30,451 nt of DNA, taken from contig SOIA01000094.1 of assembly GCA_004378665.1 (NCBI GenBank), positions 1 to 30,451 of the forward strand. The letters run 5' to 3'. Under the pieces are notes generated by a model. That model saw nothing but the letters and a program-made list of their open reading frames with translations. It was not told the DNA's origin and did not search any database. Position numbers and translations under genes: made by a program. Source of the stretch: Candidatus Aminicenantes bacterium. GTDB lineage: Bacteria; Acidobacteriota; Aminicenantia; Aminicenantales; Aminicenantaceae. This document shows, in pieces, positions 17,382 to 23,521 of this stretch (positions are counted from its first letter, which is position 1; the number at the start of each line of letters is the position of its first letter).

Positions 17382-17411
17382 TTGACAACACAGGGGGAGA
17401 ATGAATAAACT
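17382..17411 (+). promoter_or_regulatory. Putative sigma70 promoter for the rnf operon
   Basis: TTGACA (17382-17387), 18 nt, TAAACT (17406-17411). Confidence 0.55.
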
Positions 17412-17444: not shown

Positions 17445-18764
17445 ATGAAGACCAAGACATTCCCTCACGGAATCCATCCTCCTGAACTCAAAAATCTCAC
17501 GGAGGAGATCTCTCTCCAGCCCATGCCCGCTCCTGAGAAAGTCATGATCCCTCTCCTGCAGCATTTTGGCGCCCCCGCAAAGCCTTTAGTCCAGAAAGGG
17601 GACGAAGTCTCGCTGGGTCAGAAAATCGGCGAAGGACAGGGCCTCTTCTCGGCTTCCGTCCATTCCAGCGTTTCCGGCAAGGTTCTCTCTGTAGACTCTT
17701 TTCACCACCCCGGGGGAACTCCTGTTCCTGCGGTCACGATCGCTAATGACGGCCAGGATAAAGCCGATACCGATAAAAAAGAAATAAAAAATCCCTTTTC
17801 CCTGAGCCCGGAGGATATCCGTGACAAGATCAAAGAGGCCGGAGTGGTCGGCCTGGGAGGAGCCGCCTTCCCCACGGCGGTCAAGCTTTCTCCCCCCAAG
17901 GATAGTCCGATTGACACGATCATCATAAACGGCTGTGAATGCGAACCCCTATTGACTTCTGACTACCGGCTCATGCTGGAATTTCCCGACGAAATCCTCA
18001 AGGGCGCAGAACTGGCGCGCATCGCAACGGGCGCAGACCGGATCATTGTGGGAATAGAGGACAATAAGAAAAAAGCGTTTGAACTATTCCAGGAAAAAAT
18101 TCAGGATTACGAAGGAGAGGCCGTGCTCCTCAAAACAAAATATCCGGAAGGAGCCGAGAAAAACCTGATCTATGCCATCCTCCGCAGGGAAGTCCCAAGG
18201 GGAGGGCTTCCTTTCAACGTGGGAATCGTCGTCCAGAACGTGGGGACAGCCAAGGCCATCTGGGATGCCGTGAGCACAGGAAAGCCTCTCTTCGAAAGGG
18301 CCATCACGGTTTCAGGGCAAAGTATCACAGAGCCGAAAAATCTCCTCGTCCGCATCGGAACTCCCTTCCAGGCCGTGATTGATTTCTGCGGAGGGCTCAA
18401 GGAGGACGGAAACATTCTGGTGATGGGCGGTCCGATGATGGGGCTCACTCAGTGGACTCCGGAAGTGCCGGTTGTCAAAGGGACTTCTGGCATTTTGGCC
18501 TGGAACGCTCCCGCGCCCGGCACCGAATACTCCTGCATTAACTGCGGGCGCTGTATCGAGCACTGCCCGATGGCACTTGTGCCGACTCAACTCGCAAAAT
18601 ATGTCCAGTTCGACAAGCTGCCCGAAGCCGAGAGCTGGGGCATCCTGGACTGCGTGGAATGCGGCAGCTGCCAGTACATCTGCCCTTCTAAGATCCTTCT
18701 TGTCCACTGGATGCGCCTGGGAAAAAATAAGGTCATGAGCTCGAAACAAAAAAAGAGCGCCTGA
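17445..18764 (+). CDS. rnfC: Rnf complex subunit C, short form
   Basis: GIHP, GVVGLGGAAFPT, NGCECEP, KYP.GAE, GGPMMG and two CxxCxxCxxxCP motifs. Confidence 0.95.
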   Translation: MKTKTFPHGIHPPELKNLTEEISLQPMPAPEKVMIPLLQHFGAPAKPLVQKGDEVSLGQKIGEGQGLFSASVHSSVSGKVLSVDSFHHPGGTPVPAVTIANDGQDKADTDKKEIKNPFSLSPEDIRDKIKEAGVVGLGGAAFPTAVKLSPPKDSPIDTIIINGCECEPLLTSDYRLMLEFPDEILKGAELARIATGADRIIVGIEDNKKKAFELFQEKIQDYEGEAVLLKTKYPEGAEKNLIYAILRREVPRGGLPFNVGIVVQNVGTAKAIWDAVSTGKPLFERAITVSGQSITEPKNLLVRIGTPFQAVIDFCGGLKEDGNILVMGGPMMGLTQWTPEVPVVKGTSGILAWNAPAPGTEYSCINCGRCIEHCPMALVPTQLAKYVQFDKLPEAESWGILDCVECGSCQYICPSKILLVHWMRLGKNKVMSSKQKKSA

Positions 18765-19741
18765 TGACAGATAAACTCTTCATCCTCCAATCCTCGCCTC
18801 ATTTCAGGGATAAAGACTCTGTCCCCAAAATCATGTACGTCGTTATCATCGCCCTCCTCCCGGCTGTTTTCGCCTCTCTTTACTTCTTCAGGCTCAAGGC
18901 TGTCGGCCTGTATGTCTCATGTTTGGTGGCCTGCCTGGTGACTGAAGCCATCTTCCTCTGGGTCAGAAAAAAGCCCCTGCAATCTCTTGGGGATGGCTCT
19001 GCCGTGATCACTGCCTTGCTTATCGCTATGACCCTTCCGCCGACTATTTCCCTGGAATTGGCAGTCATCGGATCGGTTGTTGCGATTGCCATAGGAAAAC
19101 AGGTCTTCGGAGGGCTTGGATACAATATCTTCAATCCTGCACTGGTTGGAAGAGCCTTTCTCCAAACCGCCTTCCCTGTCGCGATGACGACCTGGTTCCC
19201 TCCTGCAACGTTGAGCTTTGACACCGCGACTTTCGCCACGCCTCTGGGCAACCTGAAATTTGAAGAAGCGATTGCCCAGGGAACGCTCACCCCTCTCAAA
19301 GACCTCTTTTGGGGGAATACCGGCGGCTGTTTGGGGGAGACTTCGGCTATCGCTCTTCTCATCGGTGCGATCATCCTGTTCTCCAAAAAAACGATCGACT
19401 GGCGCATCCCGTTGGGAATCATCCTTGCCTTGAGTGTCTTTACGGGCATTTTTTGGCTCGCGAATCCGGACAAATACGCCTCTCCTGTTTTCCATGCGCT
19501 CGCGGGAGGCCTGTTGATCGGAGCTTTTTTCATGGCCACTGACATGGTGACTTCACCGATCACACCCAAAGGCACATGGATATACGCTCTGGGGATAGGC
19601 TTCATGGTGGGATTGATCCGTCTTTTCGGAGGTTTTCCAGAAGGCGTGATGTATTCCATCCTTTTCATGAACACTTTTGTTCCTCTTCTCAACCGCTATT
19701 CACGGCCAAAAATCCTCGGAGAAAGGAGGAAAGAATCATGA
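18764..19741 (+). CDS. rnfD: Rnf complex subunit D
   Basis: SSPH, KQVFGGLGYNIFNPALVGR, FATPL, MATDMVTSP, EGVMYSILFMN. Confidence 0.95.
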   Translation: MTDKLFILQSSPHFRDKDSVPKIMYVVIIALLPAVFASLYFFRLKAVGLYVSCLVACLVTEAIFLWVRKKPLQSLGDGSAVITALLIAMTLPPTISLELAVIGSVVAIAIGKQVFGGLGYNIFNPALVGRAFLQTAFPVAMTTWFPPATLSFDTATFATPLGNLKFEEAIAQGTLTPLKDLFWGNTGGCLGETSAIALLIGAIILFSKKTIDWRIPLGIILALSVFTGIFWLANPDKYASPVFHALAGGLLIGAFFMATDMVTSPITPKGTWIYALGIGFMVGLIRLFGGFPEGVMYSILFMNTFVPLLNRYSRPKILGERRKES

Positions 19742-20343
19742 GCCTTTCCTCTCGAATGATCATCGTTCTGACTACGGTCGGCCTGATCTCCGGAGGTTTT
19801 TTAGCCGGAGTGGCGAAACTGACAGAGGAAAGGATCGCACTGAATATTCAAGCGGAAATCGAAGAGGCCATCGCAGAGGTCGTAGATAATGCAGAGGTCA
19901 ACCAGAAAGTGTACGAAGAGGAAGACCTTGTTATCTACAGAGAGCTGGACGAGGAAGGCGCTCTCGCTGGATTCGCAGTCCAGGCGACCGGCGTAGGCTT
20001 TCAGGATAAAATCACTCTGATGTTTGGATTGGACGCATCCCTGACAAAAATAACCGGACTGACCGTCATTGACCAAAATGAAACGCCCGGTTTGGGCGCG
20101 AAGATCGAAGATTGGAATTCCTTCCTTCAGTTCTGGGAAAACAAAGATGCGACTGGCCAGCTCACCTTGCGCAAACCTGCCGCACGCACTCCAGAAGAGC
20201 TCTCGGCCGCTGAAATCAACACCATCACAGCGGCCACGATCTCCTCGAAGAAAGTGCTGGAAATCGTGAATCTTTCGCTGGAAAAGGTCCGACAGCTCAT
20301 TCAGGAGGGGAAAATCGCAAAAGAGGAGCAAGATGGCGACTAA
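19738..20343 (+). CDS. rnfG: Rnf complex subunit G (FMN-binding)
   Basis: N-terminal TM helix, NETPGLG, ITAATISS flavinylation motif; ATGA overlap with rnfD. Confidence 0.9.
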   Translation: MSLSSRMIIVLTTVGLISGGFLAGVAKLTEERIALNIQAEIEEAIAEVVDNAEVNQKVYEEEDLVIYRELDEEGALAGFAVQATGVGFQDKITLMFGLDASLTKITGLTVIDQNETPGLGAKIEDWNSFLQFWENKDATGQLTLRKPAARTPEELSAAEINTITAATISSKKVLEIVNLSLEKVRQLIQEGKIAKEEQDGD

Positions 20344-20944
20344 AAGCATCGGGCAGGAATACCTCAAGGGTCTGTGGGATGAAAATCCCGTGTTCCGCCA
20401 GCTTCTCGGGATGTGCCCGACGCTTGCTGTCACCGGGACTGTGATCACCGGCATGGCCATGGCCCTGGCCACGACCTTCGTGTTGATCTTCAGCTCACTC
20501 GTTGTCTCGTCGATCAAAAAGCTCATCCCCTCCCAGGTCCGCATCGCCACTTATATCGTCGTCATCGCGAGCTTCGTGACCATCGCCGACCAATTCCTGA
20601 AGGCCTATTTTTATTCGATATCTGAAGCCTTGGGCCCTTATGTCCCTTTGATCGTGGTCAACTGCATCATACTGGGCCGACAGGAGGCGTTTTCATCGAA
20701 GAACTCGGTCGGCCGGTCTCTGATCGATGCCCTGGGTATGAGCTCAGGGTTCGTGCTGGCTCTGTTTGTTCTGAGCGCGATCCGGGAACTCCTGGGAGCA
20801 GGAACGTTTCTTGGCTATCAAGTTATGGGCCCCTGGTTTAAACCCTGGATAATCATGATCCTGCCTGCGGGTGCTTTCATCACTTTAGGGGTTCTTCTTG
20901 GAATTGCCCTTTTGATCGAAAGCAAGACAAAGAGGAGTCAATAG
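20333..20944 (+). CDS. rnfE: Rnf complex subunit E
   Basis: ENPVFRQLLGMCPTLAVT, PLIVVNCIILGR, RELLGAG, LPAGAF. Confidence 0.95.
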   Translation: MATKSIGQEYLKGLWDENPVFRQLLGMCPTLAVTGTVITGMAMALATTFVLIFSSLVVSSIKKLIPSQVRIATYIVVIASFVTIADQFLKAYFYSISEALGPYVPLIVVNCIILGRQEAFSSKNSVGRSLIDALGMSSGFVLALFVLSAIRELLGAGTFLGYQVMGPWFKPWIIMILPAGAFITLGVLLGIALLIESKTKRSQ

Positions 20945-21519
20945 TGGAACTGGCTGCAATTTTTATCTCGGCTGTTCTGGTCCAGAACTTTGTTCTGTAT
21001 TACTTTCTCGGCATCTGTCCCTTCCTGGGGGTGAGCAAGAAAATCGACTCCGCCTTTTCCATGGGGCTCGCCGTCACTTTTGTCATGTCCATCACTGCGG
21101 TTGTCTCATGGCTGATCAACAACCTGATCCTTATTCCGTTCGGCCTGGACTATCTCCAGATCGTATCCTTTATTCTTGTCATCGCATCCCTGGTCCAACT
21201 GGTTGAAATGTTCATCCGCAAGATCAGCCCTCCTCTCTACCAGGCTTTGGGTATCTATCTTCCGTTGATCACGACAAACTGCGCCATCATGGGCCTAGCC
21301 CTGATCGCTGCGTTGAACGAATACAGCTTTGTGGAGACCGTAATTTTCGGGTTCAGTTCAGGCATAGGATTCACTCTCGCCATCGTTCTGATCGCCGGAA
21401 TCCGGGAACAATTGGACCTGGCTGATGTTCCCGAACCCTTAAAAGGAGCTGGGATCGCGCTTATTGTTGCCGGAATCATGGCTCTGGCCTTCAATGGATT
21501 TATAGGAATGCTGACATGA
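20944..21519 (+). CDS. rnfA: Rnf complex subunit A
   Basis: NFVL..FLGICPFLGVS, YLPLITTNCA, GIREQL; GTG start overlapping the rnfE stop. Confidence 0.95.
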   Translation: MELAAIFISAVLVQNFVLYYFLGICPFLGVSKKIDSAFSMGLAVTFVMSITAVVSWLINNLILIPFGLDYLQIVSFILVIASLVQLVEMFIRKISPPLYQALGIYLPLITTNCAIMGLALIAALNEYSFVETVIFGFSSGIGFTLAIVLIAGIREQLDLADVPEPLKGAGIALIVAGIMALAFNGFIGMLT

Positions 21520-22361
21520 CCGAAATCTTGATCTCGATCATCACCATGACCGCACTCGGTTTTCTGTTCTCTGTGGGCCTGGTGTTTGCGTACAAAAAAC
21601 TGAAGGTGGAAGAAGACCCAAAGATCGAGCAGGTGTCAGAAGCCTTGCCTCAGGCTAACTGCGGCGCCTGCGGCTACGCGGGATGCCGGGCGTTCGCGGA
21701 AGCTGTGGCCAAGGGTGAGGCGGAAGTCAACGGATGCCCTGTCGGAGGAGAAGACGTCACCTCTGAAATCGCAAATATTCTGGGAATCGAGGCGCCCGAA
21801 GTGGTCAAACAACTGGCCCGCCTTCACTGCCGGGGAACCCATGAAGCCGCAAAGGACAAGGGCCCTTACATCGGGATCTCCACATGCCATGCTGCCCACC
21901 TGATCGGCGGGACCAAACAGTGTTCTTTCGGATGCCTTCATTCTGGAGACTGTGTCCGAGTTTGCCCTTTTGATGCGCTCCACATGGGAGAAGAAGGCCT
22001 CCCTGTAGTGGATGAAGACAAGTGTACGGCCTGCGGGAAATGTGTTGATGCGTGTCCGAGGAATCTCTTCGAGCTCCATCCGGTGTCTCAAGAGATCATC
22101 GTTTTCTGCCGTTCGCTGGACAGGGGTGCGGCTTCACGGAAAGCATGCAAAAACGCCTGCATAGCCTGCGGAATCTGTGCGAGGGCCTGCCCGGAGGCCA
22201 TCGTGATGGAGAATAATATTGCGGTGATTACGGACTATAAAAAGATAAGCCCGGATAAAATTCCTGAGATTGAGAAATGCCCGACCGACGCTATCGGACG
22301 GCTTCACAAGGATACGAATGAAGAAGAAAAGGAGGAAGAAAAAAAGGAAGATGAGGGATAA
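21516..22361 (+). CDS. rnfB: Rnf complex subunit B
   Basis: N-terminal TM helix, LPQANCGACGYAGC, multiple ferredoxin Cys motifs; acidic C-terminal tail. Confidence 0.93.
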   Translation: MTEILISIITMTALGFLFSVGLVFAYKKLKVEEDPKIEQVSEALPQANCGACGYAGCRAFAEAVAKGEAEVNGCPVGGEDVTSEIANILGIEAPEVVKQLARLHCRGTHEAAKDKGPYIGISTCHAAHLIGGTKQCSFGCLHSGDCVRVCPFDALHMGEEGLPVVDEDKCTACGKCVDACPRNLFELHPVSQEIIVFCRSLDRGAASRKACKNACIACGICARACPEAIVMENNIAVITDYKKISPDKIPEIEKCPTDAIGRLHKDTNEEEKEEEKKEDEG

Positions 22362-22794
22362 AGGGCTGGTTATCGCCATAAAAAATAACCTGGCTCAGGT
22401 TGAAGTCCAATGCCTGATCGAATCCTGCGGCCGCTGCTCCGCCAGAAGCCTCTGCACCGGACAGGACAAATCCAAAGGGCATCTTGATGTTCAAAACCCC
22501 CTCAAGGCCTGCGTAGGAGACGAGGTCGAAATCGAGATCCCTGAGGCAAAATACAACCAGGCTTTGATCCTTCTCTTCGGGACTCTTCTCACTGCTCTTC
22601 TCTTCGGAATGGGAGGAGGTTATCTCCTGTCCTTCCTTATCCCTCTTTCAGCCTCCGCAACAAGCATTCTCGGCCTCATCCTTGCCGTGATTATCTCAGG
22701 AGCCTTTCTCTTCCGCCATTTTAAAAGAAAATTTCATGATCAACTTTATCCGGTGATCACTGATATCCTCAATAAAGGAGACTGCCATGGATAG
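22351..22794 (+). CDS. rseC: RseC/MucC family protein
   Basis: G.V....N.A.VEV followed by CGRCSARSLC, then VGDEVEI and two TM helices; ATG at 22351. Confidence 0.8.
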   Translation: MRDKGLVIAIKNNLAQVEVQCLIESCGRCSARSLCTGQDKSKGHLDVQNPLKACVGDEVEIEIPEAKYNQALILLFGTLLTALLFGMGGGYLLSFLIPLSASATSILGLILAVIISGAFLFRHFKRKFHDQLYPVITDILNKGDCHG

Positions 22795-23521
22795 ACGTGC
22801 TTTTTTCAAAACACTCTTCGTCACACCTCTCCTGACTCCATTCGTATTGTCATCCGAGTCGAACAGGAGCCCAGTCCAGCTCTGTGTGATCGGAGATTCT
22901 CCGCAACTCTTCCTCCCTCCAATCCTTCGTGGATTGAGCGAATATGGATTCATACCAGGCCAGACGTTTGCCTTTCTCAATTCCCATCCAGAAGGAAACG
23001 AATTGAAAAACGTTCTTTCAACCAGTGGCTGGAAATTCGCGGCTCAGACATCCAGGGCAGACCTCCGTTTTTCCTTCAACCATCTTCGTCAAAAGGCTTC
23101 TCCATCTTTTACTTTTATAAAAAACGGAAAGGTTTGGGATATCCGAACACGAGAACTCTATTCCCTCTGGAAGGACATGCACAGCCATCACTCCTCTTCT
23201 TCTTTGCTAACGACGGTCTCTTTCAAGGACACAAGCGTTCGGGTCCAACCAGGAACTCACGCGCAAGTCTTTTTGGATGGGAAAAACGTGGGAAGCCTTT
23301 CGTTAAACAAGAATTCATCCCGGTTATACCGGGCAAAAAAAGGAAAAATCTCTGTGGTCGTGGAAAACAGGCGGGCTTGGGTGTCTGAATCTTCCTGCCG
23401 TCATAAAATCTGCGCTTCCGCACTCCCTGTCTCTCTGACCGGAGAGCGCATCATTTGTGCGCCGAACAATTTCCTTGTCGAAATCCAGGGTCCGCGTATC
23501 GTGGACACAATTATCGGATGA
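22787..23521 (+). CDS. Tat-signal protein with unknown N-domain and C-terminal NusG domain II (DUF1312)-like domain
   Basis: MDRRAFFK Tat motif; C-terminal AWVSESSCRHKIC...GERIICAPN matches the NusG-II/DUF1312 pattern; overlaps the rseC stop. Confidence 0.7.
   Translation: MDRRAFFKTLFVTPLLTPFVLSSESNRSPVQLCVIGDSPQLFLPPILRGLSEYGFIPGQTFAFLNSHPEGNELKNVLSTSGWKFAAQTSRADLRFSFNHLRQKASPSFTFIKNGKVWDIRTRELYSLWKDMHSHHSSSSLLTTVSFKDTSVRVQPGTHAQVFLDGKNVGSLSLNKNSSRLYRAKKGKISVVVENRRAWVSESSCRHKICASALPVSLTGERIICAPNNFLVEIQGPRIVDTIIG

Follow-up and report, generated by a model that had tools for sequence, protein, structure and literature searches.

The last gene of an rnfCDGEAB-rseC operon in an uncultured Aminicenantes bacterium encodes a two-domain variant of EetA, in which the PF07009 domain is preceded by a conserved twin-arginine motif and by an additional N-terminal domain. 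This EetA with a Tat signal and an orphan domain is a new form of a known protein, present in part of one uncultured class, and no description of a two-domain Tat form was found in the literature on NusG_II/DUF1312 and flavinylation. With moderate confidence, we regard the protein as a periplasmic accessory of the ApbE-dependent flavinylation or maturation of Rnf. A preliminary description of the sequence had proposed a new Rnf accessory; the form itself, with its Tat signal and N-domain, is indeed new, but as PF07009 is the domain of EetA, the protein counts as a variant of a component that already has a name, not as an entirely new accessory.

Gene organisation at the end of the rnf operon

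The window, meaning the whole stretch of DNA that was analysed (30,451 nucleotides of contig SOIA01000094.1), contains the following genes, of which the six rnf genes and rseC were identified by Pfam and NCBIfam.

17382..17411, + strand: sigma-70-like promoter candidate before rnfC (TTGACA-18-TAAACT, 10/12 consensus; a match to the consensus only)
17445..18764, + strand: rnfC (RnfC_N, Complex1_51K, SLBB and Fer4 domains; TIGR01945, 522 bits)
18764..19741, + strand: rnfD (PF03116, E 1.7e-112; aligns with the solved RnfD chains 7zc6_D and 9eri_D)
19738..20343, + strand: rnfG (FMN_bind and TIGR01947; likely start ATG 19738)
20333..20944, + strand: rnfE (PF02508, E 4e-64)
20944..21519, + strand: rnfA (PF02508, E 6e-61)
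21516..22361, + strand: rnfB (PF04060 FeS and Fer4 domains)
22351..22794, + strand: rseC-family gene (PF04246, E 1.3e-18; Cys-rich N-terminus followed by hydrophobic segments)
22787..23521, + strand: gene for the EetA-like protein (244 aa), last gene of the rnfCDGEAB-rseC operon

As described before, the last ORF lies at the end of the operon and overlaps rseC by 8 nt, its ATG being placed inside the last rseC codons (common sequence ATGGATAG; rseC stop TAG at 22792-22794), with an AAGGAG ribosome-binding site directly 5' of the ORF. From this arrangement, its translation is likely to be coupled to that of RseC. On the 3' side, dnaN and dnaA were found 70 bp off in convergent orientation, and the copy in the window has no adjacent apbE.

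The subunit genes also presented some peculiarities of their own. The longest ORF of rnfG begins at 19576, inside rnfD; RnfG more likely starts at the ATG at 19738 (MSLSSRM...), where start and rnfD stop overlap in the sequence ATGA, and the 54 codons that precede this ATG in the long ORF look non-coding for RnfG. The FMN site of RnfG is here NTITAATISS (TAAT; 20218-20247), likewise in a few close relatives, and the canonical TGAT was found at this site in most related loci. In RnfD, the flavinylation-site region reads DTATFATPLG (nt 19220-19249; aa 153-162), and T-[F/Y]-A-T-P-L was found in 48/48 scored RnfD from the loci with an EetA-like protein (L006-L078), compared to T-[S/A/G]-A-T in 10 operons of the class without it and T-T-A-T or T-G-A-T in the solved RnfD structures. 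It is uncommon to find an aromatic residue where Gly or Thr usually stands, although the contrast is confounded by lineage; for this reason, and because the position is already T/G-variable in the solved structures, a link between the aromatic motif and the EetA-like protein was rejected.

The C-terminal domain is EetA

Three regions were distinguished in the protein encoded by the last gene of the operon.

22787..22867, + strand: predicted twin-arginine signal, aa 1-27 (MDRRAFFK, Pro/Thr-rich h-region, then VLSS)
22868..23236, + strand: orphan alpha/beta N-domain, aa 28-150 (~120 aa; conserved P39, PSFT (107-109) and WDIR (117-120))
23237..23521, + strand: EetA / DUF1312 / NusG_II domain, aa 151-244 plus stop (C204, C209, C224, GERIICAPN)

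The Pfam family PF07009 (NusG_II) matched aa 148-235 with an E value of 1.4e-15 and 57.8 bits, against a gathering cut-off of 29.6. When the modelled C-domain was compared to solved structures, it was aligned with 4esn (chain 4esn_B; Z 15.1, rmsd 1.2 A over 77 residues; Foldseek E 8.6e-8), with domain II of the Aquifex aeolicus NusG (1m1g; Z 13.7), with 3ld7 (Z 13.2) and with 4obi (Z 12.8). Hence, the C-domain is EetA both by sequence and by fold. The NGN and KOW domains that flank domain II in NusG were not detected by Pfam, where PF07009 was the only match. As the similarity to NusG is restricted to domain II, the protein is not a transcription factor, in agreement with the preliminary description, which had also assigned the C-domain correctly to NusG-II/DUF1312 without naming it as EetA.

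The D-R-R-A-F-F-K motif, the three cysteines and the IICAPN sequence (aa 222-227) noticed previously are all present in the protein. In an alignment of 34 homologues, C204, C209, C224 and the G-E-R-I-I-C-A-P stretch were invariant or nearly so. Among the solved DUF1312 proteins that share the fold of the C-domain, namely 4esn (Ruminococcus gnavus), 3ld7/2kpp (Lin0431) and 4obi (EF3258), all three cysteines are present in 4esn, whereas 4obi and the Aquifex NusG have them only in part. These DUF1312 structures correspond to single-domain proteins and the 1m1g domain is an insert in a transcription factor; none of them has the N-domain or a Tat signal.

In Listeria and Firmicutes, ApbE (FmnB), EetA and EetB reportedly constitute a flavin-trafficking module, as described by Light in 2018. 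The name EetA is given to 'NusG_II (PF07009)' in Data Set S1 of Rivera-Lugo et al. 2023 (PMC9973259), where the EetA proteins have 125-133 aa and one transmembrane helix and are encoded beside an ApbE lipoprotein and EetB (PF07456), the S-component for FAD export. In the same study, the genes co-located with eetB included eetA in 3,328 genomes, apbE in 2,169 genomes and Rnf genes in 572 Clostridia, and a clean deletion of eetA in Listeria had no EET phenotype (PMC9973259). The L. plantarum work used an eetA/B double mutant only.

A canonical ApbE-EetA-EetB trio was also found in one of our loci, from a Clostridiales MAG (L076), in which the EetA (143 aa, with a membrane helix) and the Tat-type protein have the CxxxxC...GERIICAPN signature in common. 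As the signature is also present in this Sec-inserted EetA, the Cys triad is a feature of the EetA family and is not special to the Tat form.

The Aminicenantes protein therefore has in common with the EetA of the ApbE/EetA/EetB module the PF07009 domain, as judged by HMM and fold, and the CxxxxC...GERIICAPN signature, together with a predicted extracytoplasmic location and a genomic link to apbE and Rnf. In contrast, it is larger (244 aa vs ~125-145 aa), it has a predicted twin-arginine signal where canonical EetA has a single N-terminal membrane helix, and it contains the extra orphan N-domain, which canonical EetA lacks. The gene context also differs, as the Aminicenantes gene is coupled to rseC in a class in which EetB was not found, whereas canonical EetA is encoded beside EetB. 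The twin-arginine signal would thus take the place of the membrane anchor of EetA, with a lineage-specific domain of 120 aa lying between the signal and the EetA domain.

The N-terminal domain is an orphan

In its AlphaFold2 model (pLDDT 79), the whole protein consists of a disordered signal and two domains. When folded alone, the N-domain reached a pLDDT of 93.4 and a pTM of 0.86 (AF2 model), with an alpha/beta topology of about five main strands and four helices. Pfam searches with 28 N-domains revealed no common family, the best single match being TraT (E 0.0042) in one member, and neither a match in NCBIfam nor a usable match in the ESM Atlas was obtained for the domain. Against the PDB, Foldseek found nothing at E <=0.001 (best LptE, E 0.04) and VIA-align nothing at Z >=5 (best 4.8, the THUMP domain of 1vbk). 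As these fold similarities are weak only and fall within what the tool rates as uninformative, no fold was assigned, and the N-domain is as unrecognised in Pfam and the PDB as it had appeared at first reading.

The distribution of the domain was followed with a HMMER profile built from the 28 N-domains, which matched 64 proteins among 1.84 billion cluster representatives. Matches of approximately full length had the domain at residues ~28-149 of a protein of ~244 aa, that is, in the same architecture, and the short matches look like fragments; the weakest match, to nine short stretches of a 506-aa protein (E 3.5e-4), seems spurious. The N-domain is thus an orphan confined to the Tat-type EetA-like family. 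The HSHH sequence singled out in the preliminary description is present within this domain (aa 132-135; nt 23180-23191), but it is variable among the 34 aligned homologues and was consequently dropped as a candidate metal site. In a sequence scan of the EetA-like protein itself, the ApbE flavinylation motif ([ST]G[AS][ST]) was absent.

Signal region and putative Tat export

The N-terminal D-R-R-A-F-F-K fits the Tat consensus (S/T-R-R-x-F-L-K). A motif count showed that the RR pair is kept in 96/96 homologues, as would be expected from orthologues if the preliminary reading of a Tat motif were right, and the extended pattern M-[DEN]-R-R-x-F-[FLI]-[KQRN] was likewise retained in all 96 sequences, down to an identity of ~40%. 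In the alignment of 34 homologues, M1, R3, R4 and F6 were invariant or nearly so. The 16 amino acids that follow the RR motif have a mean Kyte-Doolittle hydropathy of 1.2 and usually include two prolines, and from its sequence this h-region fits a Tat signal better than a membrane anchor. The signal region had a pLDDT <60 in the AlphaFold2 model.

The machinery for such an export is encoded in the same genome (TatC, 232 bits; TatA, 66 bits), which does not point to a cytoplasmic protein, and TatC was detected in 120/121 genomes of the class. An AxA-like cleavage site was not evident after the h-region in the homologue alignment, in which only sequences similar to L-A-S or L-S-S were found; because of this, the protein could stay anchored. 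A reading of C33 (VQLC) as a lipoprotein cysteine was discarded, since C33 is variable among the homologues and sits after a polar stretch. Judging from these sequence features, the EetA-like protein is probably exported to the periplasm by Tat.

Tat export typically concerns proteins that have folded or received a cofactor beforehand. In the EetA-like family, the change of targeting signal goes together with the acquisition of the N-domain, and the reason for the use of Tat may be that this domain has to be folded, or loaded in some way, prior to export. The Cys triad and GERIICAPN are not that reason, because they are also present in canonical Sec-inserted EetA and in 4esn.

Distribution, synteny and duplication of the gene

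A search among 5.8 billion proteins revealed 95 homologues, nearly all of ~244 aa, with identities down to ~40% and all of them with PF07009. When the EetA domain was searched among proteins of 134-427 aa, 100 matches were obtained, again nearly all of ~240 aa, and every source name given was Aminicenantes or Acidobacteriota. Members of the family are annotated at NCBI only as 'NusG domain II-containing protein' or as hypothetical.

A scan of GTDB representative genomes yielded 73 loci, nearly all from MAGs of Aminicenantes or Acidobacteriota; two of them were Clostridiales MAGs that matched the C-domain only and were of the canonical ApbE-EetA type. Many TPA MAGs are titled 'uncultured Eubacteriales bacterium' (within L006-L078) and have the rnf-rseC-X-dnaN-dnaA synteny, X being the gene studied here, in common with MAGs titled Aminicenantes, at 40-70% identity; the Eubacteriales title seems to be a generic placeholder rather than a real placement.

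The gene context was mapped by tblastn for 73 gene copies in related loci, leaving out the two copies of the own genome. The gene stands after rseC at the end of rnfCDGEAB in 56/73 copies, and apbE lies directly 3' of it in 30/73, both neighbours being present in 16/73. It follows rnfCDGEAB-rseC without a subsequent apbE in 36/73 copies and precedes apbE without rnf upstream in 13/73, and the remaining copies are cut by contig ends. Linkage to rnf-rseC and/or apbE was found for 70/73 scored copies, so the expected association of the homologues with rnf or flavinylation genes held, and the short overlap between rseC and the gene recurs across loci.

In the own genome, one copy is that of the window, after rseC, and the other is beside apbE on contig C204 (L004:3-1608). 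The 5' end of this paralogue is truncated by the contig edge and its 3' end overlaps the longest apbE ORF. A second, different ApbE is encoded on contig C315 of this genome.

In some relatives, apbE was found 4-6 kb 3' of the gene, with mostly opposite-strand genes in the gap (L034:10744-16309; L048:10375-14074). These encode an FGGY kinase, a xylose-isomerase-like/3-keto-disaccharide hydrolase, a GFO/IDH/MocA oxidoreductase, and a transporter of the nucleoside-H+ symporter family or a DoxX protein. The block seems to have been inserted into what was ancestrally an rnfCDGEAB-rseC-X-apbE unit, where the gene would have stood directly before apbE. Two loci (L043 and L048) have a second copy of the gene directly before apbE, and some of the genomes whose rnf and apbE are split by the sugar-gene island retain a copy beside each of them. 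In a maximum-likelihood tree of 75 copies with midpoint root, the rseC-X-apbE context was dispersed over the branches and also occurred in the clades on one side of the root. At least one clean lineage-specific duplication was found (SH-aLRT 97), in which such a pair of copies forms sister clades, one associated with rnf and the other with apbE.

Class-wide counts were made in 121 genomes, 91 of them of high quality. PF07009 was detected in 33/121 genomes and RnfC above cut-off in 60/121, including all 33 genomes with PF07009, whereas EetB (PF07456) was detected in 0/121 genomes of the class (0/91 of high quality), and none was found in the own genome. Co-occurrence with rnf, as anticipated in the preliminary description, is thus complete in one direction (33/33) but not in the other, since 27 Rnf-positive genomes, all of one family (f8), have no EetA-like protein. 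It follows that Rnf, or its flavinylation, does not need the protein in general.

Ten loci of this family (L080-L089, from genomes G084, G068, G078, G046, G008, G096, G100, G038, G020 and G036) were inspected. Eight of them have the order rnfBCDGEA, with ~45% identity, and are devoid of rseC, of the EetA-like gene and of an adjacent apbE. The other two have the order rnfCDGEAB, also without rseC or the EetA-like gene, and one of these is followed ~1.5 kb downstream by an apbE-like gene on the other strand. Two types of Rnf operon coexist in the class, rnfCDGEAB-rseC-X(-apbE) and, in most of the inspected f8 loci, rnfBCDGEA.

Putative role in the flavinylation of Rnf

The identity of the C-domain, the conservation of the signal motif, the Tat genes, the synteny, the lack of a detectable EetB and the orphan nature of the N-domain are direct observations on which the assignment of the protein to the maturation of Rnf is based. 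As EetB was not found in the class, the role of the EetA domain is not limited to helping EetB, the ECF exporter. The gene was kept beside both rnf-rseC and apbE after these were split, which argues that it serves a step of flavin attachment or assembly and not of export. The folded protein would be exported by Tat to the periplasmic face, and would there work with ApbE at the outer face of the inner membrane in the maturation of Rnf, the step served being presumably the covalent attachment of FMN to RnfG and RnfD. A possible way to do so would be to bring together ApbE, its FAD substrate or the acceptor sites of Rnf.

The nqr operon provides a parallel for this arrangement. There, the maturation genes for NqrM, a membrane protein, and ApbE stand at the end of the operon. 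In both systems, the structural genes of homologous redox pumps are followed by small accessory genes next to apbE, although no relation in sequence or fold was detected between NqrM and the EetA-like protein.

Other roles were weighed against the same data. It is rather unlikely that the protein is an extra periplasmic subunit or redox partner of Rnf, such as a partner of RnfG, with the three cysteines as a thiol/disulfide or metal site. Its place as the last, translationally coupled gene of the operon, the invariance of C204, C209 and C224, and its constant association with the rnfCDGEAB-rseC type of Rnf would be in line with such a subunit, but the same Cys triad is found in canonical EetA from loci without rnf and in 4esn, and many copies stand beside apbE and far from rnf (13 loci). 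Moreover, when the PDB chains were all searched with a family profile, only DUF1312 proteins and NusG were found, whereas the RnfD of the window as a query found 7zc6, 9eri and 8ahx. A partnership with RseC in the delivery of iron or an Fe-S centre to RnfA/RnfE, by analogy with NqrM, which acts in the maturation of NQR, would explain the conserved rseC overlap, the Cys-rich N-terminus of RseC and the joint absence of rseC and the EetA-like gene from the rnfBCDGEA-type loci of f8. Such a role appears quite improbable, however, as 13 copies are associated with apbE and have no rseC, Pfam recognised no Fe-S-like motif, and the Cys triad is general in Sec-inserted EetA, which cannot carry a cluster loaded in the cytoplasm.

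A different possibility, also unlikely, is that the N-domain or the whole protein loads FAD (or another cofactor) in the cytoplasm and is carried by Tat to deliver it to ApbE, replacing EetB. The kind of cargo that Tat usually exports, the coincidence of the signal switch with the gain of the N-domain, the 0/121 count for PF07456 and the position of the gene directly before apbE in many loci are all compatible with a ferry of this sort, and the route by which FAD reaches ApbE was called obscure in a 2025 ApbE review. On the other hand, the N-domain has no flavodoxin, Rossmann or other nucleotide-binding fold and no glycine-rich loop, its best PDB matches being weak THUMP-, LptE- and LpoB-like alpha/beta sandwiches (Z <=4.8), and a stoichiometric carrier would be costly. 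The Rnf-positive relatives without the protein are also without EetB, so another route for FAD must exist in the class. Finally, the RR pair might not be a working Tat signal at all, with the protein being anchored in an ordinary way or cytoplasmic and its operon position being devoid of functional meaning. The lack of a clear cleavage site and the anchoring of canonical EetA by one helix would agree with this, but we consider it very unlikely given the retention of the complete motif in 96/96 sequences down to ~40% identity, an h-region with two prolines whose hydropathy is low for a membrane anchor, and a conserved synteny that recurs across the class-wide tree. The explanation that we prefer is that the protein acts in the periplasm as an accessory when Rnf is flavinylated or matured with the help of ApbE.

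EetA is widespread, being encoded beside eetB in 3,328 genomes (PMC9973259), and its only clean deletion had no phenotype. In a lineage that has the EetA domain but in which EetB was not found, its ties to ApbE and Rnf-RseC and its duplication where these two were separated point to a role in flavin attachment or assembly. Since the Aminicenantes protein has a signal instead of a membrane helix, the mature form may be soluble, and if so, it would be a convenient form in which to test what EetA domains bind. The protein also bears on the question raised in the 2025 review of how FAD reaches ApbE: if it were a carrier of FAD, it would give a lineage in which no EetB was found a way to export flavin without a transporter.
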